DNA from: Candidatus Sumerlaeales bacterium
Lineage (GTDB): Bacteria; Sumerlaeota; Sumerlaeia; Sumerlaeales; Sumerlaeaceae
Assembly (NCBI GenBank): GCA_038243585.1
Contig: JBBSQY010000033.1
Location: 1-36,941, forward strand
Direction: 5' to 3'
DNA: 36,941 nucleotides
Positions 993-13,755 of the stretch are shown here, one piece after another. Both the position numbers and the translations under genes were made by a program. The notes below the pieces were generated by a model. That model saw only the letters and a list, made by a program, of their open reading frames with translations. It did not search any database and was not told where the DNA came from. Position 1 is the stretch's first letter. Each line of letters starts with the position of its first letter.

Positions 993-3104
993 TTATTGAG
1001 GCGTAAGACGCATAGCGTCAACGCTAACGCTGACGTTTGCGCCCTGCGGCGCGGTAACGCCTTCTGTGCTGACTGTTAATACAGGAACACCCTGGCCGGC
1101 TTTAAACTGGTAGGTTCCAAGCACCTGCCATTGGCCACTTTGAGTCTGGTTTATTGTCGTCTGCTGCGGGCCTGTGGCGGTATTTACCGTGACAGGTACG
1201 CTTGCGGAGCGAAACTGCGGCGTTCCCCCAATCCACCAGAGTGCGACTTCAAATGCGCCATCTGCTGGAATAGAAGCGTTAAAGGTCGCCGTTTTAACCG
1301 CGGCCGGATTGACTTGAGCCATGACAGATCCGCCCTCATAGCTGTCCGTGGTGCTGGCAGACTGGGTCCAGTCGGCGGCAGGCGACAGTGTAATTCCTCC
1401 TGGTGTTTTGTCATCCACAATAATGACATTTGCCGCTGCGGCTGGCACAGCAGGAGTTGGCAGTGAAGGCATCATGCTTGAAGGCGTAGCCGTGGCCGGT
1501 AATCCGGACGGCAGTGATGGCAACGCCGATGCGATCTCGGTCGAGGCCGCCGGAAGGGTAGGCAGGCCCTGGGCATCCACCGCAACAGGAACTGCTGGCA
1601 GGGTGGGCAAGCCTGGCACCTCGGACGAAGTAACAGGCGCTGCGGGCAACTCAGGCAACAGACCAGGGGCGGGGGCCGCTGGCGCAGACGGAGTTGGAGA
1701 GATAACTGGAGCGGCCGGCATTACGGGAAAGGCCGGTACCGGAGTGCCTAAGACGGGCGTCGGGATAAGCGGTGCCGCCGAAGGAAGCATTGGCATAACA
1801 GGGTCGCCGTTAACCACTGCCGGAGTAGTCGCGCTTACGTTGACCCCAGCATCGCTAAGCACGGGGAACGGGTTCACTTCCGTGGCAGGATAAATGGTCG
1901 TCTCAGCACTGGCAGTTGCTTCAAGACCAGGCTGCAAGACCGTGAGGGATGAGACAGGGGGCACAGAGGTCGAGATGGAAGCGGCATTGCCCGTTTCGTC
2001 TCCTGCAAGTCCCGTGCTGGCAACAAGGTTTGAATTTATTCCAGCGGTAATTGGGTTCAACGTTTCTTCGTTCGCAACACCGGGAACATAACGTGCGGCT
2101 GCATAATCTGCTTCCGTGCTCATGATGGCTGATGCGGGCGCCGTCACATAGGCAGGAACCTGCGGCTCAACAGGGGTCGTTCCAGCGTAGCCTTGCGGCC
2201 AGTAAAAAGTGCCATAAGGCAGGCTTGTGTAGATGTCCGTGCGCAGAAACGGGGCGCTGGCATAAACATAATTGGCTGGTGGCGACATGATGTTCGACGG
2301 ATATGGAGTCGCTCCGGGCAGTAGGACCCGTGTTACTGTCTGCGGCATATAAATGATTGGTGGTCCAGCGAACGCAGGGGATCTCAAGTATGGGGTACCA
2401 ACAGGGGCAGCGGCCGCAAGGCCCTGACCGTACGGTGCCGCTATCCCAGCTTCTGTGCTGACGACAGCTGGAGCCGGGAAAAGCGGAATGCCCATGCCGC
2501 GCGGGGTCGGTTCCGCGATGGCGGCAGTTGTGCGAGTATATGAGTAGCTGCGTCTGCTGCCTTTTTCCAACTGTTCGCCCTGAACGACTTGTTGAGTGAC
2601 CACGGCTGCAGCATCATGCTCTGGTGGTGGCACCATCCGGGCCACGGGTGGTGGTTCTGGAGCTCCGAGTTCAGTGGTTACGCGCGTGGTTTCCGTGCGA
2701 ACAGTAGCTGCCGAATTGGCTTGCGCAAGCTGTCTTTGACCGGGGCTTAAAGGCTGCACGTCGCCGGTCACTTTGACGTTATAGGCCGATGCGGGCAACG
2801 TTTTTTCAAGGGTCGAGGAAAGGCTTATTCTATCACCTACCTTGACCATTCCTGCCGCGCCGGCGGGCAACGTGATTACTGTGCCCCCCTGGCCGCCGCT
2901 GGATTTCACCGTGGCGTCTGTAACCAGACTTCCCTCGCGAACAACATAAACTTTGTCACCATCAGGACGCGCGGGGATATCCACGACCAACTCGCCGGTT
3001 GCCGCGCTTGGCACTGCGGAGACTATTCCTAATTCCTGTGACCATGCTGCGCCAGCAGACGCAAGCACCAACGATAACGATATCGTACCAACTACCTTGC
3101 TCAT
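993..3104 (-). CDS. Secreted Pro/Ala-rich protein with C-terminal golvesin/xanthan-lyase-type carbohydrate-binding-like beta-sandwich
   Basis: Signal peptide (MSKVVG...AAWS/Q; ATG at 3104 with GGGAG SD) and a long low-complexity P/A/T linker. The C-terminal IIVDD...W...ATF...G.FEV.LWW...VPVTV...INQ...GQWQVLGTYQF..G...V.VDAMRL pattern is typical of golvesin_C-like domains. Confidence 0.75.
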   Translation of the reverse strand: MSKVVGTISLSLVLASAGAAWSQELGIVSAVPSAATGELVVDIPARPDGDKVYVVREGSLVTDATVKSSGGQGGTVITLPAGAAGMVKVGDRISLSSTLEKTLPASAYNVKVTGDVQPLSPGQRQLAQANSAATVRTETTRVTTELGAPEPPPVARMVPPPEHDAAAVVTQQVVQGEQLEKGSRRSYSYTRTTAAIAEPTPRGMGIPLFPAPAVVSTEAGIAAPYGQGLAAAAPVGTPYLRSPAFAGPPIIYMPQTVTRVLLPGATPYPSNIMSPPANYVYASAPFLRTDIYTSLPYGTFYWPQGYAGTTPVEPQVPAYVTAPASAIMSTEADYAAARYVPGVANEETLNPITAGINSNLVASTGLAGDETGNAASISTSVPPVSSLTVLQPGLEATASAETTIYPATEVNPFPVLSDAGVNVSATTPAVVNGDPVMPMLPSAAPLIPTPVLGTPVPAFPVMPAAPVISPTPSAPAAPAPGLLPELPAAPVTSSEVPGLPTLPAVPVAVDAQGLPTLPAASTEIASALPSLPSGLPATATPSSMMPSLPTPAVPAAAANVIIVDDKTPGGITLSPAADWTQSASTTDSYEGGSVMAQVNPAAVKTATFNASIPADGAFEVALWWIGGTPQFRSASVPVTVNTATGPQQTTINQTQSGQWQVLGTYQFKAGQGVPVLTVSTEGVTAPQGANVSVSVDAMRLTPQ

Positions 3105-3320
3105 TCGCAAACTCCCATAACCGTCTTAACCCAAAACTCCAGCAGAACCGCAACCTACTGCATCTGATTCCAACACAGAAACTGGCTTAGCAATAAATTT
3201 CCGAAAATAGATCATGCCTCTCGTGGCAGGGCAAGCACATTGTTAACTGTATGGACGCTTTTCTGTTTAAAGCAGTTGAGACATAAAGAAAAAGCGTGAA
3301 GCAGTACGATAGACTTAGTT

Positions 3321-5333: not shown

Positions 5334-6434
5334 TTAATCAAACAACTCCCAGCCGGCGGCTGAGGAAGGTCCTGTTTTTGGCGTAATCGCCAGCAGGTTT
5401 GTCGCAGCTGGAAAAGTTACAAAGCCGCCTATATAAACCGTAGCCAGTGGGCTGGCTGCGCCTCGCGTAAAGGGACGCGCTGGAAAATCCACTCGAGCGG
5501 AGGATACGTATCCGGCGTTGGTTTCAGCAAGCACGGTGCCCGTGGCGGTACCTGCCAGAAGGTTATCAGGGAGTTGAAACATCCTGATTGTGCCACCGTT
5601 TTCGCTCGTGATCAGCTTGCCGTCGCCAGTGGTGCCAAGGTCGGAAATACTGTTTGTCAGTTGGCTTGTGGTGACGATGTCGTTAAATTCTCCCGCATCA
5701 ATATTGTCGTCCGCATTGGTGTTTACCAGCGCCGCAACGCGTCCGGCCGGGAACTCCGAAATTCCACAGACCACATGGCCCTCCGGAGTAAAAGCCAGGC
5801 CGCCGTTGTAATTGAACCCGGAAAACCATGCCGCTCCCGAGGGGTAGTAGGCAGGGTTGGACTCAGGGTTTTGAATTACAAGTATTTCCGAGTTTGTGCC
5901 ACCATCCGCCGTCTGGACGAGGAGCGATCCTGCGGGAATACCGGCCTGATTGCCTGCGGGGGCAACGGTAAGCTGCGCACCCGTAAAGCTGCCATTAGTT
6001 AAAATAGGCGCTATCAGTTCAGTGATTTCTCCGGCGTCAAGCCAATCGCCATCCGCATTTAAATCCCGAGCGCGAAGAATCGTATCTGAAGTAAAATCGT
6101 CGTTATCTGTGATTGCCAGGTCGCCGTTAGCGAGAACGGCCAGTCCGCCGACGTTGCCTACAACGGGCGTAACCGTGCGGGTGGTTCCGGTGTCGAGTTG
6201 CACTTCGAGAATGGAGTGCATGGAGTAGGGCCCAACTGAAGCATAAAGGATGTTTTCGTCGGCAGGGTGCTGAGCGATGGCTCCGCCGAATCCCACTCCG
6301 AGTTCAATGGAATGTGCCAGGTAGCCGGGCGCGAGGGTGGTTATTTCAAGAGTATCGGCAATGGCTGGCTGGTTCATGGCAAAAGCTACGGCCGCAGCGA
6401 TTCCACTGTGGGTGATGATGTTAAATAATTTCAA
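5334..6434 (-). CDS. Secreted hypothetical protein (probable beta-propeller) downstream of the cobalamin riboswitch; C-terminal W-x-L-F tail
   Basis: TTG start with AAGGA SD and a signal peptide (..PAIA/D). Repeated GGLA(V/F)xxxGxL-type blade motifs and two D-x-N-x-D-G/D Ca-binding-like loops (DLNADGDWLDAGE, NTNADDNIDAGE). Ends SSAAGWELFD. Confidence 0.8.
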   Translation of the reverse strand: MKLFNIITHSGIAAAVAFAMNQPAIADTLEITTLAPGYLAHSIELGVGFGGAIAQHPADENILYASVGPYSMHSILEVQLDTGTTRTVTPVVGNVGGLAVLANGDLAITDNDDFTSDTILRARDLNADGDWLDAGEITELIAPILTNGSFTGAQLTVAPAGNQAGIPAGSLLVQTADGGTNSEILVIQNPESNPAYYPSGAAWFSGFNYNGGLAFTPEGHVVCGISEFPAGRVAALVNTNADDNIDAGEFNDIVTTSQLTNSISDLGTTGDGKLITSENGGTIRMFQLPDNLLAGTATGTVLAETNAGYVSSARVDFPARPFTRGAASPLATVYIGGFVTFPAATNLLAITPKTGPSSAAGWELFD

Positions 6435-6603
6435 TGTCTTTTCCTTGTGACCTGATTCCGAGGTCTGGTATTTTGCGTTTCGCTGGCGCGGACGATTAGT
6501 CCGTCGCTTTCTTTCATGGGATCATAGTAAAGATCCCGCGCGTTACAATGCGCGGCTCTACCTGCTTCTTTCTGTCCTTTCCGGCGATGATCCATCGCCT
6601 TTT

Positions 6604-6785
6604 CTCGGAGTTCGGTCTTCTGACTTGCGGATCAACCTCGGTTCTTCAGCCTTCCCAACCCGTGTCGCGGCCAGTGGCTACTGCTTTGAAGAACGTTGTC
6701 CCCGCTTACAGCGGCGGTCCCGTGCCGGATTTTCACCGGCTTCCCGTTAACTCTAAAAAAGAAAACTCACGGCGCACCTTCCGGT
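6604..6785 (-). promoter_or_regulatory. Cobalamin (B12) riboswitch
   Basis: Minus strand reads GGAAGGT...TTAACGGGAAGCCGGTGAAAATCCGGCACGGGACCGCCGCTGTAAGCGGGG...GCCACTGG...GGGAAGGC...CCGCAAGTCAGAAGACC. All core conserved segments are present, including the B12 box. Confidence 0.93.
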
Positions 6786-6802
6786 AAAGAAGAAAGTGCG
6801 TC

Positions 6803-6833
6803 GTGACTATAGTACTCTGTACAACGTAGTCAC
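6803..6833 (-). promoter_or_regulatory. Candidate sigma70-type promoter for the riboswitch, overlapped by an inverted repeat
   Basis: Minus strand GTGACT-N16-TATAGT just upstream of the aptamer. A perfect GTGACTA-N17-TAGTCAC inverted repeat spans it. Confidence 0.4.
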
Positions 6834-6896
6834 CGCAGACTCAGGCGATACAGCGGACCTTGACGTTTTAGCAGCCCGTCTGAGCCAGTGCGGGAC

Positions 6897-6917
6897 GGGC
6901 AGGAATGCCCATCCTAC
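6897..6917. repeat. REP-like element, family A (single copy)
   Basis: GGGCAGGAATGCCCATCCTAC, near-identical to 5300-5321, a few bases after the heme oxygenase stop. Confidence 0.7.
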
Positions 6918-6921
6918 GAGA

Positions 6922-7554
6922 TTAGGCCCGAACTGTCTCCGGGTAGATTTCTGCTTCTACATCGATGATCTGCAAGAATGTCGCTTTCGCGGCTTCCACT
7001 ATTTTGTCGCCCTCTTCTGGTGTGAACTCAAGCTGTTCCATGGCAGATTTGTAATCTGACCACTTCTGCCGCTGTTCATCTCCATAAGGATCAAGGTAGC
7101 GGGTGCCATCCTCGCCCTCAAGTCGCCATGCGCCGCGCAGGGCCATGGCGATGTATTTGGCTCCATTGTTGCTGCCTTCAAACACATAATGAAAGCCCAG
7201 GAGCGCAAGGTCGTCTGCTGATTCGATTGCCTCAAGCAGCTTTCCCGTGGCTTCACACGGCGCAGCCAGTTCAGGGTCGCCACCGTAGAATCGCAAATCG
7301 GCCGCGGCGCGCTCTTCCTGAAATTGATAATCATGGACGACCGCTGCAATGCGGGGATCGTTGGTACGCGCTTGCCTTAGTTTCGATTCCAAGGTGCGGT
7401 GAATGAGATAGCGCTGGGCCAGTTGCTCACTATAGACATCTTTTGGAAGCTTCCCTTTGACCAGATCCTTTTCGAGAGCGGCGTGTTCCGCCTGCTGATG
7501 CAGCGGCCAGGTCTCTTTTTTCAGTCGTTCTGTAATTGTAATTGCTTCGGTCAT
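6922..7554 (-). CDS. hemO: Biliverdin-producing heme oxygenase (HemO/PigA/HmuO family)
   Basis: LKKETWPLHQQAE carries the proximal His; LLGFHYVFEGSNNGAKYIA is the distal-helix YVxEGSxxG motif. The start overlaps the MFS stop (ATGA). Confidence 0.92.
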   Translation of the reverse strand: MTEAITITERLKKETWPLHQQAEHAALEKDLVKGKLPKDVYSEQLAQRYLIHRTLESKLRQARTNDPRIAAVVHDYQFQEERAAADLRFYGGDPELAAPCEATGKLLEAIESADDLALLGFHYVFEGSNNGAKYIAMALRGAWRLEGEDGTRYLDPYGDEQRQKWSDYKSAMEQLEFTPEEGDKIVEAAKATFLQIIDVEAEIYPETVRA

Positions 7555-8891
7555 GCCGGGAGTTTCCTTTCGTCTGTTAAATCAATTTTTGATATTTTTT
7601 CGTCAATGGGCGATGCATGATTATCAGCATAGTCACGGGGAACGGTAGATGCAGACGAGTCGATCGCAGCATTTCGCCGGGCGAGAATCCAGGCAAGTCC
7701 ACCGCAGCCAATTTCCACGGCACCAACGCTGGCGAAGGTGAAGGCATAACCCATGATTTTACCTGCCACCCCGGCATAAACAAAACCTAGCAGAAGACCG
7801 AAAGAACCCATAAGATTAAAAGCAGAAATAGCGGTGGCTTTTTCGTCCGGTTTGACCATCTGACCCACGAGTACCAGGTTTGCAACAAACTTCAGACCTG
7901 TGAAGAGCCCCGCGAGACCGATGAACACCAGGAACATCCAGGGAAAATCGAAGACCACAGCCAACGAAAGACAAAGGCCATAGCCCACCGAACTGACGGC
8001 TATAGCGCGCCACGCCCCGATACGACTTGTCAAGGTCCCCGCATAACCACTGGCTCCTGCGAACATAATCCAGAAGGCGGTCATCACGGCCCCGGCGGCG
8101 GTGAAGCCAGTTAGCCCGTAACGATCTTTCAGAACCAGGGCCGGCAATATGGCCAGAAGCGCAAACGAGAATTTGTCTACAAATCCGAACATGATCGGAA
8201 GCCATAAACGCGGAACGCCGCGGAGAGAGGCAATCATGGCGCGAGCGCCCGGCTCCCGAACGGTTACATTTTCAGGGCGTTTTACTTCCCACAACAGCAG
8301 GAGCGCCGCAAGCGCCAGCCCGCCGCCGGCAATTCCATAGACGACGTTTATCCCCGCGCCGGCCATTCCCAGAAGTAATGTAAGGGCGCTACCCAGTAAG
8401 TAGCCGGCAGGGATCGAAGTCATAAAAACAGCCATGACTCGAGACCGCGTTTGCGGCGAGCAAAGGTCCAGCGCGCGGGTCATCAACATACCGATGCCAA
8501 CGATTCCGAGCGCTCCATCCAGAAACCGAAGGGCCAAAAGGGAGGAATACTCGCTGGGGAAGGGAAGGAGCATAGTTGTTATGCCGGTTCCAAAACATCC
8601 TGCAAGCGCCAGGGGAACCCGACGCCCCCACCGATCCGAGATAAGGCCGGCCAGCAACCCCAACAGCAGAATCTGCGGCAGGGAATGAACCAGCATAAAC
8701 ATGGAAGTGCCGCGCTGATCCAGATGGAACTTGTTGCGAACCAGCTCATTCAGGGTCGGTGTAATGACCGCCATGGAACAGAACATCATTGTTGTTACCA
8801 CTACCAGGCGCAGCAAAGGACCCCAAGGCATTTGCCCGGGGTCCATGCTGTGCCGACTGGCAGGTGGCATAAGGTGTTTGTCAGTTTTCAT
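7551..8891 (-). CDS. Major facilitator superfamily transporter
   Basis: About 12 hydrophobic segments, motif A (GLISDRWGRR) and motif B (LRFLDG). Confidence 0.9.
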   Translation of the reverse strand: MKTDKHLMPPASRHSMDPGQMPWGPLLRLVVVTTMMFCSMAVITPTLNELVRNKFHLDQRGTSMFMLVHSLPQILLLGLLAGLISDRWGRRVPLALAGCFGTGITTMLLPFPSEYSSLLALRFLDGALGIVGIGMLMTRALDLCSPQTRSRVMAVFMTSIPAGYLLGSALTLLLGMAGAGINVVYGIAGGGLALAALLLLWEVKRPENVTVREPGARAMIASLRGVPRLWLPIMFGFVDKFSFALLAILPALVLKDRYGLTGFTAAGAVMTAFWIMFAGASGYAGTLTSRIGAWRAIAVSSVGYGLCLSLAVVFDFPWMFLVFIGLAGLFTGLKFVANLVLVGQMVKPDEKATAISAFNLMGSFGLLLGFVYAGVAGKIMGYAFTFASVGAVEIGCGGLAWILARRNAAIDSSASTVPRDYADNHASPIDEKISKIDLTDERKLPA

Positions 8892-8918
8892 ATAACTTCA
8901 TGCCACTGTTGTTAGTAA

Positions 8919-9746
8919 TTAGTAGAGGTCCCAGTTACTCGCTGCGCTGTGGGTCGAAATTTCCATAATGAGAGCAGGTGCCTGTTGCAGGGTGCCATTG
9001 GCGGGCTCGGAAACTCCCTCTTTCGTTACAAGACGCGGATAGGTAGCAGGAGGTCCGCCGGGCTGCGCGGCTGGAAAAGTACCGACCAAGCTCCACATTG
9101 CAATCCCGGATTCCAGATCGTCCCGCAATTGCTGGCGAACATCCGAGTTGCTAACGTCGAGGTTGAAAGTAATTGGAAATGCTTCAGCAGGTGAAGCACT
9201 GCCGTCATAAGATGGATCAAAAGTCCCGACCGAGTATGGTGTAGCCGCCAGGTTATCTTCTGCCCGGTTGCCAGTGCCCAGTTCAATCAAGTATGGGTCC
9301 TGCAGTGGGGTGGCGCTTACAACTCCGGGCCCCACATATCCCTGGGTTTCTGTCCAAGTGGCTTCGGTGAAGCCGTTTTGACCAGTGATTCCGGTAGCGA
9401 ACATTTTCAACTGGCCAGATGCAGGATTCCAGGCGTCGGCGTTTGCCGCCTGCCATAATACGATTCGCGCACTTGTAATCGCGTAAGGAGTGTTTTCCAG
9501 TTCTGGGGGGAGTGCCACAGTCCACTTCATATGCATTGATGAGTAATGTCTGTTGAACATATATGGGCTGGTCTCATCTTTGTAAAAAGCGTAAACTGGA
9601 ATCGTTTTACCTGTGCCCGTGCTGTGGTTCGGAGTCAGATTGGCGTCGCCTGTTAAAACGCCATTTACGGTTCCGGCTTGAGCCGGGGTGCCAAGTACGG
9701 AGAGCACCAACGCAATGCCTGCCGCCGTCATAAAACTTTGTAACAT
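8919..9746 (-). CDS. Secreted hypothetical protein with C-terminal W-x-L-Y tail
   Basis: ATG at 9746 preceded by AAGGA SD. Signal peptide MLQSFMTAAGIALVLSVLGTPAQA/G; ends SAASNWDLY. Confidence 0.8.
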   Translation of the reverse strand: MLQSFMTAAGIALVLSVLGTPAQAGTVNGVLTGDANLTPNHSTGTGKTIPVYAFYKDETSPYMFNRHYSSMHMKWTVALPPELENTPYAITSARIVLWQAANADAWNPASGQLKMFATGITGQNGFTEATWTETQGYVGPGVVSATPLQDPYLIELGTGNRAEDNLAATPYSVGTFDPSYDGSASPAEAFPITFNLDVSNSDVRQQLRDDLESGIAMWSLVGTFPAAQPGGPPATYPRLVTKEGVSEPANGTLQQAPALIMEISTHSAASNWDLY

Positions 9747-9824
9747 ACAATCATCCTTTTTCGTAGGGGTTATTAAACAGAAAATCAAGTGTTGCCGTTG
9801 AACTAAAGGCATGCATGCGACCTG

Positions 9825-10433
9825 TTACCAGCTGTCAACCCCTGGTAGCGGCGTCCGCGCTATGCCGCCTCGAGCGACAATCTCTCCGCCGCTAATGGTT
9901 CCATTAGTGGGGTCATAAATGTACGTCGCGTAACTGCCGGACCGGATTGAGTATTCGGGGAAAGCGTAATACGGAAAGCTAATAGTAAGATCCGGGCCGC
10001 CGCTGGTTAGAGAATAGGACATCTTGTCGTTTTTAAGCCCTGTTTCACCCGGCCCAGAGACGTGGGACGCGAGCTCGTACAAATAAACGTCAAGCGGCTC
10101 ATTAGGATCAACCACATTAATACTGTCCTCATAGTTATGCCCGGTGGTACGGACAAATGGATCGCGCGGACGAGAGGTTAGATAAGATATCGGCGTCGTA
10201 AGCGGGTTCAGGCGCACACTAGGCATTGGTTCGTAAAAAGTTCCGCTAGGCGGATACGCATTGTTGTCCAACTGATACGTTTCAAGAGCTGTAGCCATGG
10301 TGCGCATCTCGGCTCGAACTCTGGCGGCCTTGGCACGCACTTGCGCCTGTAAAAAGTTGGGTGTGGCGATTGCTGCAAGAATGGCTATAATCGCCACTAC
10401 AATCAGTAGTTCTATGAGCGTAAATGCTCTCAT
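9825..10433 (-). CDS. Prepilin-type N-terminal cleavage/methylation protein (type IV pilin / GspG-like pseudopilin)
   Basis: MRA|FTLIELLIVVAIIAILAAIATPNF class III signal, GspG-like helix ..ALETYQLDNNAYP, SGGPD, and C-terminal YDPTNGT.S.GEI motif. Confidence 0.92.
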   Translation of the reverse strand: MRAFTLIELLIVVAIIAILAAIATPNFLQAQVRAKAARVRAEMRTMATALETYQLDNNAYPPSGTFYEPMPSVRLNPLTTPISYLTSRPRDPFVRTTGHNYEDSINVVDPNEPLDVYLYELASHVSGPGETGLKNDKMSYSLTSGGPDLTISFPYYAFPEYSIRSGSYATYIYDPTNGTISGGEIVARGGIARTPLPGVDSW

Positions 10434-10775
10434 TACCACCTGGGTCCCTGTGTGTCTTTGGATATGTTCGACTGAAAACTTAAAATCACTGCCATTATCT
10501 CCTGCTACAACTTATAAACTTTAGTATGCAAAGAGCACACCAGACTCATCCGAGTCTCTAAATTGTTTATTTTGAATGTTATACATAAGAATAGAGTTGG
10601 GCCAGTGGGGAAATACCGGCTCGTATAAGCCACCGGGTGCGGCAAATAGTGCACTTTCTCAATTTAGTTAATAATGCCTTGGCTTCGGTGCTTTCCTCAC
10701 CGTATGCTAAACCCTTCCGAGCGATTTAATTGCTATTTTTCCCCCGAAAAAGAAGTAGTTTTTGGCGCAAACCAG

Positions 10776-10794
10776 GATAATGATAGCGCTTTTC
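10776..10794. promoter_or_regulatory. Candidate Fur box
   Basis: GATAATGATAGCGCTTTTC matches the E. coli Fur consensus GATAATGATAATCATTATC at 14/19 positions (hand count). It lies in the long intergenic region upstream of the pilin-heme oxygenase operon. Confidence 0.35.
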
Positions 10795-11170
10795 GCGAGC
10801 TGTCCATATGCGAGCCGCAGTGGCCAGATCTGCGAGGCATCCATTTCCTTACTAAAAAGACGTTTGAGGTTAATCGGCGGATTCGTATATGGGATAGTGC
10901 CGAGCGGCGATTTGCTGTTTATGAGGTTTTTATGCCGCTCATGCCCGTGGGTGCAGGCTGAGAGAAGGTTTTTGGACGCTTTTAACAATTTTATTTTTTA
11001 CTGGTTTAAAGTTCATGAAAGAGCGTTCCGGGGATGTCGCCATTGTAATTGTTCTCCGTTTCAGGAATGGTTGCATTTAGGGGAAACAATAGGTGGGGAA
11101 ATGGAGAGGGGAATTCCCGCATGGGTACTTAAATGAGATTTTGAAGGGATTGGTGAGCAGACGGCGGACG

Positions 11171-11250
11171 GCGGACGGCTCGGCGAGCCATCCCTACTCA
11201 TATATGACGTTGGGATCTCGGGAGCGGACGGCTCGGCGAGCCATCCCTAC
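11171..11250. repeat. REP-like family B, two direct copies (GCGGACGGCTCGGCGAGCCATCCCTAC)
   Basis: Identical 27-mers at 11171-11197 and 11224-11250, each followed by ..TATATGA.GTTG. The reverse complement starts with GTAG. Confidence 0.8.
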
Positions 11251-11347
11251 CCGTATATGAAGTTGCACAGGGTGATCCGGCTAAACCGGAAACTCGTATT
11301 CATAATCCTTACTGCATTTTGCTGAGTTGCGCCGTGTAGTTTCTTGC

Positions 11348-11638
11348 ATGAGTAAAAACCCTAAACCTGTGCCCGCTCCGGGTAACGCCAACGAAAGTGC
11401 TTTGGATAAAGAAATCGCGGCGATGTCCATGGAAGCGTGCTTTGAAGAGCTGGAAACTATCGTGACCGCCCTGGAAAACCAGACCACATCTCTTGAAGAC
11501 TCTATAAATCTGTTCGAGCGGGGCATGAAGCTGAGCCGCCGCTGCAACACGGAGTTGACCCGCATGGAGCGCCGAATTCAGATCATTGTGGAAACCTCCA
11601 AGCAAGAAGTCCAGTACAGGGACTTTGAGGAAGACTAG
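11348..11638 (+). CDS. xseB: Exodeoxyribonuclease VII small subunit
   Basis: SMEACFEELETIVTALE...SLEDSINLFERGMKLSRRC...L...E.RIQ pattern. Start probably ATG at 11348. Confidence 0.92.
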   Translation: MSKNPKPVPAPGNANESALDKEIAAMSMEACFEELETIVTALENQTTSLEDSINLFERGMKLSRRCNTELTRMERRIQIIVETSKQEVQYRDFEED

Positions 11639-11657
11639 TCAGCGTGGCTAAACCATC

Positions 11658-12713
11658 CTAATTCGGCAGGGATGGGTAGTCTGTATAGCCCTCCGGTCCC
11701 GGGCCATAGAAGGTTTCCGGATTGGGCGGGTTTAAAGGTGCACCCAGTGAGAATCGTTTGGGAAGATCTGGATTAGCTATAAATGGTCGGCCGAAGGCCA
11801 CAGCGTCTGCTCGCCCCCCGGCCACTACAGCCTCACCGGTTTCCCGGTCAAATCCCTCGTTAAAGATATAAACGCCGCCAAAAGTCTTGCGCAACTCGTC
11901 TCCCAGAAATGGCTCTCTCAGATGTTCTCGAGCGCAGATAAACGCAATGCCGCGGCTGCCGGCCTCGGCAGCGACATGGCCAAAGGTTTTGGAAGGATTT
12001 GAATCGCCCATCCCGTGACTGTCTCTGCGAGGTGCCAGGTGCAGACCGACCCGGTCGGCACCCCACACATCGATCGCGGCATCAAGGGCTTCGAGCATGA
12101 ACCTGGCCCGGTTTTCAACGGTGCCCCCATACTCATCTGTACGATGATTCGACTGATCCTGCAGAAACTGATCGGGTAGATAACCGTTTGCCCCATGGAG
12201 TTCCACTCCGTCAAATCCAGCGGCCATTGCATTCTCAGCGCCTTTACGGTAGTCCGCGATGATGCCTGGAATTTCTTCCAGTTCAAGAGCCCGAGGCACA
12301 GCGAACTCGCGCTTGGGGCGGAGCAGGCTGACTGTTCCACTGGCGGCAATAGCGCTTGGCGCGACGGGTTGCTTCCCGTCCAGGTAGTACGGATCGGAAA
12401 TGCGACCCACGTGCCAAAGTTGAAGTATGATGCGACCACCTGCGCTGTGAACGGCGTTGGTGGTCAGTTTCCAACCATTTACCTGGTCGTCGCTCCATAT
12501 CCCTGGCGTATCCGGGTAGCCGACACCCATTGGCGAAATGGCGGTGGCTTCCGATATGATTAATCCGGCGGAGGCGCGCTGACTATAGTACTCCGCCATC
12601 ATCGCATTAGGCACACGACCGTCATCAGCGCGACAACGCGTGAGGGGTGCCATGATTACTCGGTTCGGCAGTGTCCAGGCACCGACTTGAAGAGAGTCAT
12701 GTAATGTGGGCAT
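11658..12713 (-). CDS. nemA: Old Yellow Enzyme family alkene reductase (N-ethylmaleimide reductase/XenB-like)
   Basis: NRVIMAPLTRCR, QLWHVGR, GFDGVELHGANGYL and FGRPFIANPDL motifs. AAGGAG SD. Confidence 0.93.
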   Translation of the reverse strand: MPTLHDSLQVGAWTLPNRVIMAPLTRCRADDGRVPNAMMAEYYSQRASAGLIISEATAISPMGVGYPDTPGIWSDDQVNGWKLTTNAVHSAGGRIILQLWHVGRISDPYYLDGKQPVAPSAIAASGTVSLLRPKREFAVPRALELEEIPGIIADYRKGAENAMAAGFDGVELHGANGYLPDQFLQDQSNHRTDEYGGTVENRARFMLEALDAAIDVWGADRVGLHLAPRRDSHGMGDSNPSKTFGHVAAEAGSRGIAFICAREHLREPFLGDELRKTFGGVYIFNEGFDRETGEAVVAGGRADAVAFGRPFIANPDLPKRFSLGAPLNPPNPETFYGPGPEGYTDYPSLPN

Positions 12714-12769
12714 CAGCTACTCCTTTTATGACAGGACTCTAGCGCACTTTTCATTCCAGTCATATCAGT

Positions 12770-12804
12770 AAAAAAAAAGCCGCAGACCCCTAAAGGCCTG
12801 CGGC
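12770..12804 (-). terminator. Rho-independent terminator of the 12838-13755 gene
   Basis: GCCGCAG...CTGCGGC hairpin followed on the minus strand by a run of 9 T. Confidence 0.8.
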
Positions 12805-12837
12805 AATAAAACTTCCGATTCTTTAAAGCAGAGTCTC

Positions 12838-13755
12838 TTAGTAGAGATTCCAGTCATTTACATCAGAGGTTGGAGGACCAGCTCTTAGCTGATCAAAGAT
12901 GCCCTGACGTTCTTGAGCAGTACGTCCCGTGAATCCTACTTCTCTGTAGAACATACCCGGTCTACCGTTCAAGTATATGGCGGCTGGCGTTGTGCCAACT
13001 ACGGTTCCATTAACTTTGTATGTAATGACCGTGCCCACGCACTCAATGCGCAGTGTATGCCAGCCATTGGCTGTTAGTACAATAGGCGATCCAACTGGCG
13101 TAGATGGTCCTGAAACATTAGGAAACTCTTGAGCCTGGATTTCTTTAGTCCGGTAGTTATAAACGATTCCATAACTTCCATCGAGATCAGGACTGTATCC
13201 GTAATCTCTTCTCGTCAATTGAGTTGGACCATCATCACGTGCTGCACGTGCCACAAGACCGGCTGTTTCAACGTCAGCGACAGTGGCGGAAATCGAGGAA
13301 ACCGGGCAGAACAAATCAACCTGAACATAATAATTGGCATCGTCACTATTACCAAAGAAAAGGGCGTTATAACCACCGTCATCTCCAAGAACCACGGCCG
13401 TGCCTGGACCTGTAGCTCCAGGGCGAGTGTTGGCGATAATCGGAGGTAGCGCATTGCCACGATCCGGATTGTTGTGAGGACCGGTAACCGTCAAAACCGG
13501 CGACTCTGGGCTTCCGTCAGTGGCCCATGTATTTATATAACGTATAGATGTCGTAGGAACCGTTGATGCATCAGTGCCTGTGTAATCTGTAAATTCGGAT
13601 CCATCAGGTTTGGAGGCGCCGAATGTCCCGGTACCGGTGTTATTACCCCGTGTGCCCACGTTGAACTGATCAACAATGCTGACCGTATCTAAATCCTGCG
13701 CGAACGCGCCTGCTGTCAATGTAGCTGCTAAAACAAATAAGCCAAGTCGTTTCAT
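12838..13755 (-). CDS. Secreted protein with concanavalin-like/DUF1080-like beta-sandwich and C-terminal W-x-L-Y tail
   Basis: Signal peptide MKRLGLFVLAATLTAGAFA/Q with AAGGAG SD. GWHTLRIECVGTVITYKVNG...GRPG is typical of LamG/DUF1080 folds. Ends TSDVNDWNLY. Confidence 0.8.
   Translation of the reverse strand: MKRLGLFVLAATLTAGAFAQDLDTVSIVDQFNVGTRGNNTGTGTFGASKPDGSEFTDYTGTDASTVPTTSIRYINTWATDGSPESPVLTVTGPHNNPDRGNALPPIIANTRPGATGPGTAVVLGDDGGYNALFFGNSDDANYYVQVDLFCPVSSISATVADVETAGLVARAARDDGPTQLTRRDYGYSPDLDGSYGIVYNYRTKEIQAQEFPNVSGPSTPVGSPIVLTANGWHTLRIECVGTVITYKVNGTVVGTTPAAIYLNGRPGMFYREVGFTGRTAQERQGIFDQLRAGPPTSDVNDWNLY

Follow-up and report, generated by a model that had tools for sequence, protein, structure and literature searches.

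The closest described counterpart of the element reported here is the pairing of the C-terminal domain (CTD) of type IX secretion systems (T9SS) with the sortase PorU (PMC4560394; PMC11969387; NF033707; PDB 6za2), for which the published cleavage motif is X/(GSA)(VLI) (PMC4560394). Two further precedents come from type IV filaments: the PilC/PilY1 tails, Trp peptides of about ten residues that add a strand to PilK (PMC13533445, PMC13711793), and the linear export signal of TcpF, which binds a tip pilin and is cleaved (PMC10120004). In type II secretion systems (T2SS), the choice of substrates is still poorly defined (PMC10120004). Here, a nine-residue C-terminal tail is analyzed that recurs on exported proteins of a Candidatus Sumerlaeales bacterium. 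It was noticed in a stretch of 36,941 nucleotides (the window; assembly GCA_038243585.1, contig JBBSQY010000033.1, positions 1 to 36,941); the source genome is called G000, and other G-numbers denote further Sumerlaeota genomes. Judged by its sequence and distribution, the tail almost certainly serves as some form of sorting or docking signal. It resembles a scaled-down T9SS CTD with PorU and, in part, the PilC or TcpF peptides, but it qualifies as a member of none of these systems. What is new is evidence for a split into two modules with co-loss of one of them, and a conserved synteny of pilin and passenger genes.

The tail-bearing proteins of the window, their tails and the pilin gene beside one of them are:

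5334..6434, minus strand: passenger 1, exported, 366 residues, open reading frame with a signal-peptide-like N-terminus, no family
5334..5366, minus strand: tail 1, SSAAGWELFD-stop, with a cut predicted between the two Ser residues
8919..9812, minus strand: passenger 2, exported, beta-rich domain, probable start at 9746 giving 275 residues
8919..8948, minus strand: tail 2, SAASNWDLY-stop, modeled as a free coil that is not part of the fold (pLDDT, the predicted local distance difference test, 55-64)
9825..10439, minus strand: GspG-like pseudopilin of the YD[PA]TNGT family, directly upstream of passenger 2
12838..13755, minus strand: passenger 3, exported, 305 residues, weak PF06439 match
12838..12867, minus strand: tail 3, SDVNDWNLY-stop, the nearest of the three to the consensus

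An initial annotation of the window had reported these three tails on unrelated proteins with Sec signal peptides, each behind a short Pro/Thr/Ser linker. This was confirmed: the three minus-strand open reading frames have signal-peptide-like N-termini and the linkers, and the passengers give no mutual BLAST matches at 1e-5 once the tails are removed. The tail pattern is present in 53 of 61 homologues of passenger 1, and its Trp is invariant in 60 of 60 close ones, where positions -5 to -3 (counted from the Trp) are A/S/T, A/S/G and V/A. Passenger 2, modeled with AlphaFold2 at a mean pLDDT of 92.6, has its tail as a low-confidence coil behind the last strand; the tail begins 3-6 residues past that strand. 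Comparison of passenger 2 with solved structures and Pfam gave no match and a metagenome scan with it no matches; a likeness of its domain to CBM96/DNRLRE is a lead only. Passenger 3 has two paralogues in G000, both tail-bearing.

The tail is a property of the genome and not of the locus alone. Among 2300 proteins of at least 150 residues, taken as crude gene calls from six-frame open reading frames, 67 end in W-x-[LIM]-[YF] followed by no or one residue, compared to 0.8 expected from the internal rate of the motif (168 among 964,270 positions); the 67 include one low-scoring match that is due to chance. A profile made from these tails reached at least 10 bits in 92 of 1,012,584 windows, 77 of them within two residues of a stop, and extended the set to 80 tail proteins; for the pilin-linkage test described below, six weaker variants chosen by eye from 32 candidates brought it to 86. 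The consensus reads [ST]-[ASDG]-[VA]-x-D-W-x-[LIM]-[YF]. The residue after the Trp, described at first as restricted to E/D/N, is not confined to these (Q 13, S 11, T 10, A 10 and E 9 of 67). The roughly 80 mostly exported proteins form 47 BLAST clusters, which together with the excess over expectation rules out chance or a single paralogue family as the cause of the tail. A crude signal-peptide rule is passed by 62 of 74 tail proteins and by 877 of 2177 others; it over-calls, as the latter figure shows, and the enrichment is still clear. The proposed proteome scan thus found the tail enriched both at C-termini and among signal-peptide proteins. A transmembrane (TM) segment after residue 70 occurs in 1 of the 74, compared to 473 of the 2177. 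Pfam domains in the 42 of 80 tail proteins that were scanned comprise glycoside hydrolases, proteases, an amidase, nucleases, the lamin-tail domain (LTD), FG-GAP, ice-binding, PQQ dehydrogenase and DUF1501; the leader of the DUF1501 passenger is of the Tat type, in keeping with export of cargo in its folded form.

The claim that this is a lineage-specific motif of exported proteins is supported, and the motif agrees with none of the catalogued signals tested. The tail is TM-less and neither an NCBIfam nor a Pfam model covers it; the NCBIfam CTD models gave no match in the last 199 residues of 42 of the 80 proteins. HMMER filters drop weak short matches in such searches. It was rightly set apart from LPXTG and PEP-CTERM anchors, having neither TM helix nor basic cluster, and from the T9SS CTD, a domain of 40-80 residues. 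Literature searches, with the original Sumerlaea chitinivorans genome paper and all supplements outside their scope, returned no description of the motif, and the main text of PMC8092238 has zero occurrences of 'C-terminal', 'pili' and 'sortase'.

The tail occupies a sorting-signal slot, as relatives of the same passenger bear other terminal modules there. Among the best 150 relatives of a 95-residue tail protein, this slot holds the Sumerlaeota tail in 13 (two of them false), YLPxI in 57, dockerin-like modules in 12 and IFxDGFE in 2; these classes are rough regular expressions, and among the 66 unclassed relatives TM-type CTERM and FlgD/CTD-like ends were read by eye. Tripartite CTERM signals (LPXTG, PEP-CTERM, GlyGly-CTERM, IPTL-CTERM) are therefore like the tail in that they exchange with it on a shared passenger, and unlike it in their TM helix and basic cluster and in that the genome has no exosortase. 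Exosortase was absent from 3 of 3 Sumerlaeota genomes (G000 and two single-contig ones), with one control detected; rhombosortase and sortase were not searched. In P0109-P0258, a single passenger type of 70 residues bears further short TM-less tails, YLPxI, IFxDGFE and PVxLSxFxxE, which are perhaps further undescribed signals. We know of no description of the YLPxI or IFxDGFE tails; both share slot, similar length and lack of a TM helix with the Sumerlaeota tail and differ in sequence.

Across the phylum, a strict DNA pattern of the tail has matches in 47 of 75 genomes. A hidden Markov model (E up to 10) gives 15-68 matches per genome in the family of G000 and 2-21 in families f9-f15, with 1-52 in nine Sumerlaeota-labelled genomes and a background of 0-4 in 41 genomes of the same comparison not labelled so, one of which is probably a member of the phylum. 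In the tail-poor genomes G069, G068 and G005, LTD proteins end in, for example, PTIWAIY, VVEWRVY or VRRWREY, and several are tail-less. The core common to these dialects is W-x-hydrophobic-Y/F, with F or L sometimes in place of W in genus g53 (G068 and G069, the latter a closed single contig). The impression from the strict pattern that families f2-f8 and f16 lack the tail was ruled out in the inspected genomes by variants in G005, G067, G068 and G069, and so there is no clean presence/absence profile for a tail reader. Golvesin_C proved a poor probe for f16, and 'VVQWQEY' matches in G005 and G006 were rejected as passenger tails, being GspK ends.

The front half of the tail resembles published PorU cleavage sites. 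Of the 17 PorU sites listed in PMC4560394 (Table 2), by our own count, all 17 carry G/S/A/D at P1', 14 carry V/L/I at P2' and 12 carry D/N/Q/E at P4'. In the 67 G000 tails, position -4 is A/S/D/G in 50, -3 is V/I in 43 (A in 22) and -1 is D/N/E in 51. The pattern [GSA][VLI] stands at -4 and -3 in 34 of 80 tails, compared to 5.5% before other Trp residues, and [TSND][GSAD][VLI] at -5 to -3 in 29 of 80, compared to 1.5%; the motif X/(GSA)(VLI) is only partly met because Ala often stands for V/L/I. Peptidase_C25, the family in question, is found in 73 of 75 genomes of the phylum. G000 has three such proteins (types A, B and C), which represent three orthologous groups over four sampled families, all with a His-Cys dyad, and which score 161, 160 and 185 bits with the PorU model NF033707. 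Their surroundings include an O-antigen-ligase-like gene, a tetratricopeptide repeat (TPR) gene and a GT4 gene. Some C25 proteins outside the conserved groups carry a tail of their own, in G036:C4 (L328:3620-6514) and in G069 (L322:5164-9042), and so look like passengers.

Genus g53 offers evidence, at the level of sequence, for a tail made of two modules, with the front half lost together with the C25 proteins and the W end kept. No orthologue of types A and B was found there by direct search; Pfam detects one weak C25 per genome, no third type, and that of G069 is divergent and ends in a tail variant. A PorU-like site is present in 1 of 15 g53 tails, compared to 51 of 80 in G000 (Fisher's p 4e-5), 3 of 4 in G067, a C25-bearing relative of g53, and 2 of 5 in G005, the background being 14%. 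The g53 sample consists of 12 tails from an LTD search and 3 of 20 pattern matches (the other 17 were not long open reading frames), that of G067 of 4 long open reading frames among 20 pattern matches; in G067 the distance between the tail halves is variable. The g53 tails retain the W-x-hydrophobic-Y end and the genus its type IV filament machines, so the W end must have a reader other than C25 A or B. Of the profiling suggested at the outset, tail against peptidase and T2SS or type IV pilus genes, the peptidase side thus gave this co-loss, while the T2SS-like machines occur phylum-wide and were uninformative.

For the W end, the idea of pilus or pseudopilus recognition found genomic support. 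Pseudopilins of the expanded YD[PA][TS]NGT family occur in 75 of 75 genomes, in 4-90 copies each. In G000, 10 of 27 adjoin a tail gene, compared to 1.7 expected from random genes and 1.8 from other genes predicted to be secreted (in each case 0 of 2000 shuffles); a looser pilin set gives 7 tail neighbours compared to 2.1 and 3.0 (5 and 11 of 500 shuffles). An orthologous pilin stands directly upstream of the passenger 2 orthologue in 13 of 16 other loci from five families; of the misses, two lie at contig edges. Pilins that resemble each other within G000 do not stand beside similar passengers, so strict cognate families are not shown. A complex prediction for the window pilin (residues 27-199) and passenger 2, both with alignments, scored 0.10 with a mark of 0.32; controls were not folded, and the result speaks neither for nor against the pairing. 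The secretins of G000 are three, in a PilMNOPQ-like operon, in a T2SS-like operon and as a 1692-residue TPR protein. Besides the giant secretin, the phylum has two T2SS-like tip sets: among 75 genomes, GspK-like K1 is found in 72, GspJ-like J2 in 73, LTD-bearing K2 in 73 and the giant secretin in 69, near single-copy and g53 included; H2-I2-J2-K2 form a single operon in other families and are split in that of G000. Related genes outside the window are:

G000:C32:28553-33631 (L105): giant secretin, 1692 residues, whose N-terminal region is long and consists of low-complexity and TPR sequence, conserved in 69 of 75 genomes
G000:C15:49439-51850 (L106): GspK-like pilin with an inserted LTD, an orphan in G000 and in an H-I-J-K operon elsewhere
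G000:C45:4030-10425 (L101): extra small type IV filament cluster with an ATPase, two GspF-like genes, I/J/K-like pilins and a YDPTNG pilin
G000:C45:196-1161 (L101): GspJ-like pilin, close to single-copy in 73 of 75 genomes, whose Asp-rich insertion looks like a calcium-binding one
G000:C4:109726-110574: membrane protein without prepilin leader, with a C-terminal pilin GPD...YDPTNG module

The reading that we tentatively prefer, at somewhat less than an even chance, is a two-part C-terminal signal for export by a type IV filament followed by C25 transpeptidation onto a surface glycan. Passengers would first reach the periplasm by Sec or Tat. Their W-x-hydrophobic-Y/F end would then be read by a T2SS-like pilus machine, through a pseudopilin, a tip pilin or the secretin, and this machine would carry the folded passengers out. 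A PorU-like C25 would cut the front half, [ST]/[ASDG]-[VA]-x-D, after Ser/Thr and join the passenger to an LPS-like (lipopolysaccharide-like) surface glycan acceptor; the order of export before cleavage is itself conjectural. The cleaved export signal of TcpF (PMC10120004) provides a precedent. A fuller version, in which a nine-residue tag, a T2SS-like machine whose variable pseudopilins are linked to cargo and a PorU-like sortase that swaps the tag for glycan make up a hybrid surface display without a type IX translocon, is a possibility that we hold to be rather doubtful.

Several points weigh against this two-part signal. On the cleavage side, Ala stands at P2' in a third of the tails, unlike in PorU sites; the C25 scores lie far under the NF033707 cut-off of 420; the conserved Arg722 of PorU (PDB 6za2) aligns to Gly in type A, and types B and C have no conserved Arg in the alignment; and the three C25 proteins of G000 are themselves tail-less, which leaves a surface location unexplained. 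The co-loss is one evolutionary event seen in 15 hand-picked tails, and type C was covered in g53 by the Pfam search only, not by direct search. G061, 95% complete in 400 contigs, is rich in full tails and has one C25 match only, G005 has a C25 and yet the site in 2 of 5 tails, and C25 genes may be widespread in other phyla that lack this tail. On the export side, every machine tested occurs phylum-wide, so its presence together with the W end has no discriminating value; 17 of the 27 pilins are without a tail neighbour and most tail genes without a pilin neighbour; and the linkage may reflect shared regulation.

The alternative that survives best, unlikely as we consider it, is that the tail stays uncleaved and serves solely to dock on a type IV filament, by PilC-like beta-strand addition, TcpF-like capture or variable pseudopilins, with display of binding proteins on a retractile filament and a front half that is a linker relic. 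The pilin linkage of the tail genes agrees with it, as do the PilC/PilY1 tails introduced above and the GspK-like proteins of the phylum, which end in similar strands (IRVLQWIE, VRVVQWQEY, IIDWRF); two 'tail' search matches were in fact GspK ends. It would also suit the lack of TonB-dependent receptors, of which none were found in 5 of 5 genomes (controls detected), since uptake then needs another route. However, the K1 and K2 orthologues keep their terminal strand in cis in the alignment (three further K-like genes were judged by eye), which argues against simple PilC-type strand addition, and a PilX_N search revealed no K with an open slot. GspK and PilC strands are hydrophobic at W-2, a polar position in the tail. 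Even Sumerlaeota-type families conserve the front half, and it is lost together with the C25 proteins. PilC/PilY1/MshQ strands on PilK/PilX (PMC13533445; PMC13711793) are like the tail in the ten or so terminal residues, the invariant Trp, the hydrophobic W+3 and the linked filament genes. Unlike that single adhesin, the passengers are about 80 unrelated proteins; no strandless K-like acceptor was found, and the 42 of 80 passengers scanned show unrelated domains and no PilC beta-propeller before the tail. TcpF/CofJ signals bound by trimeric TcpB/CofB (PMC10120004) are similar as short disordered terminal peptides with an aromatic residue, exported by a type IV filament and proteolysed on secretion; they differ in being N-terminal, whereas the Sumerlaeota tail is C-terminal, proteome-wide and associated with T2SS-like instead of type IVb pilus machinery.

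Quite improbable is a reading of the whole tail by the C25 system or a TPR partner for anchoring, with export through a channel that has nothing to do with the pilins. TPR domains bind C-terminal peptides, the C25 proteins are phylum-wide and a TPR gene follows C25-B in 4 of 4 inspected loci. Against this, g53 retains the W end without C25 A or B, the pilin linkage is left unexplained and a single query, whose profile is too insensitive, traced the TPR gene in no more than 16 of 75 genomes. Least probable of all is that the tail binds non-covalently to a scaffold of the outer membrane or S-layer, as the dockerin-like modules in the same slot in other bacteria might suggest, or mimics the signal read by the beta-barrel assembly machinery or the translocation and assembly module (BAM/TAM), as the aromatic terminal residue might: the BAM beta-signal is an alternating hydrophobic strand ending a beta-barrel, whereas the tail is hydrophobic only at -3, 0, +2 and +3, has a residue beyond Y/F in 30 of 67 cases and sits on passengers that are not barrels, and no scaffold was identified.

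With the two-part signal, the comparison with T9SS and PorU can be drawn as follows. Both have exported passengers from many families, a signal that opens with a small/hydrophobic/x/acidic site, C25 proteins with the dyad and glycan genes nearby. The differences, besides signal length, model matches and C25 features, concern the shuttle PorV, which was absent from 3 of 3 Sumerlaeota genomes (G000 and two single-contig ones) and detected in 2 of 2 controls. The translocon SprA had no match in G000, but none in a control either. PorU-type transpeptidation is known with T9SS, and its site and enzymes on another export route would change the view of the evolution of both systems. With a nine-residue tag that is transferable and occurs on about 80 unrelated folded proteins, T2SS substrate choice becomes testable by means of peptides and fusions, and the motif predicts the exoproteome of an uncultured phylum that seemingly lacks TonB-dependent receptors. 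The hybrid pathway, if true, would be the first proteome-wide linear T2SS signal, with YLPxI and IFxDGFE as dialects of one unrecognized class.

Two further genes of the window share the neighborhood of the pilin-cargo pair as context:

6922..7554, minus strand: haem oxygenase (PF01126, E 3e-24), in one operon with the pilin-cargo pair and outside the signal
7551..8891, minus strand: major facilitator superfamily (MFS) transporter (PF07690), downstream of passenger 2

The haem oxygenase gene is also present in a locus of the same genus (L283), and in loci L284, L285 and L298 a similar MFS gene comes next after the passenger 2 orthologue. At 993-3110, the window encodes a Pro/Ala-rich exported protein with a Golvesin C-terminal domain, which is tail-less; elsewhere Golvesin domains often precede the tail. 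From 5334 to 10439, pilin, tail protein, MFS transporter, haem oxygenase and second tail protein form one conserved block, and in a genome without TonB-dependent receptors this block possibly serves pilus-linked haem uptake.

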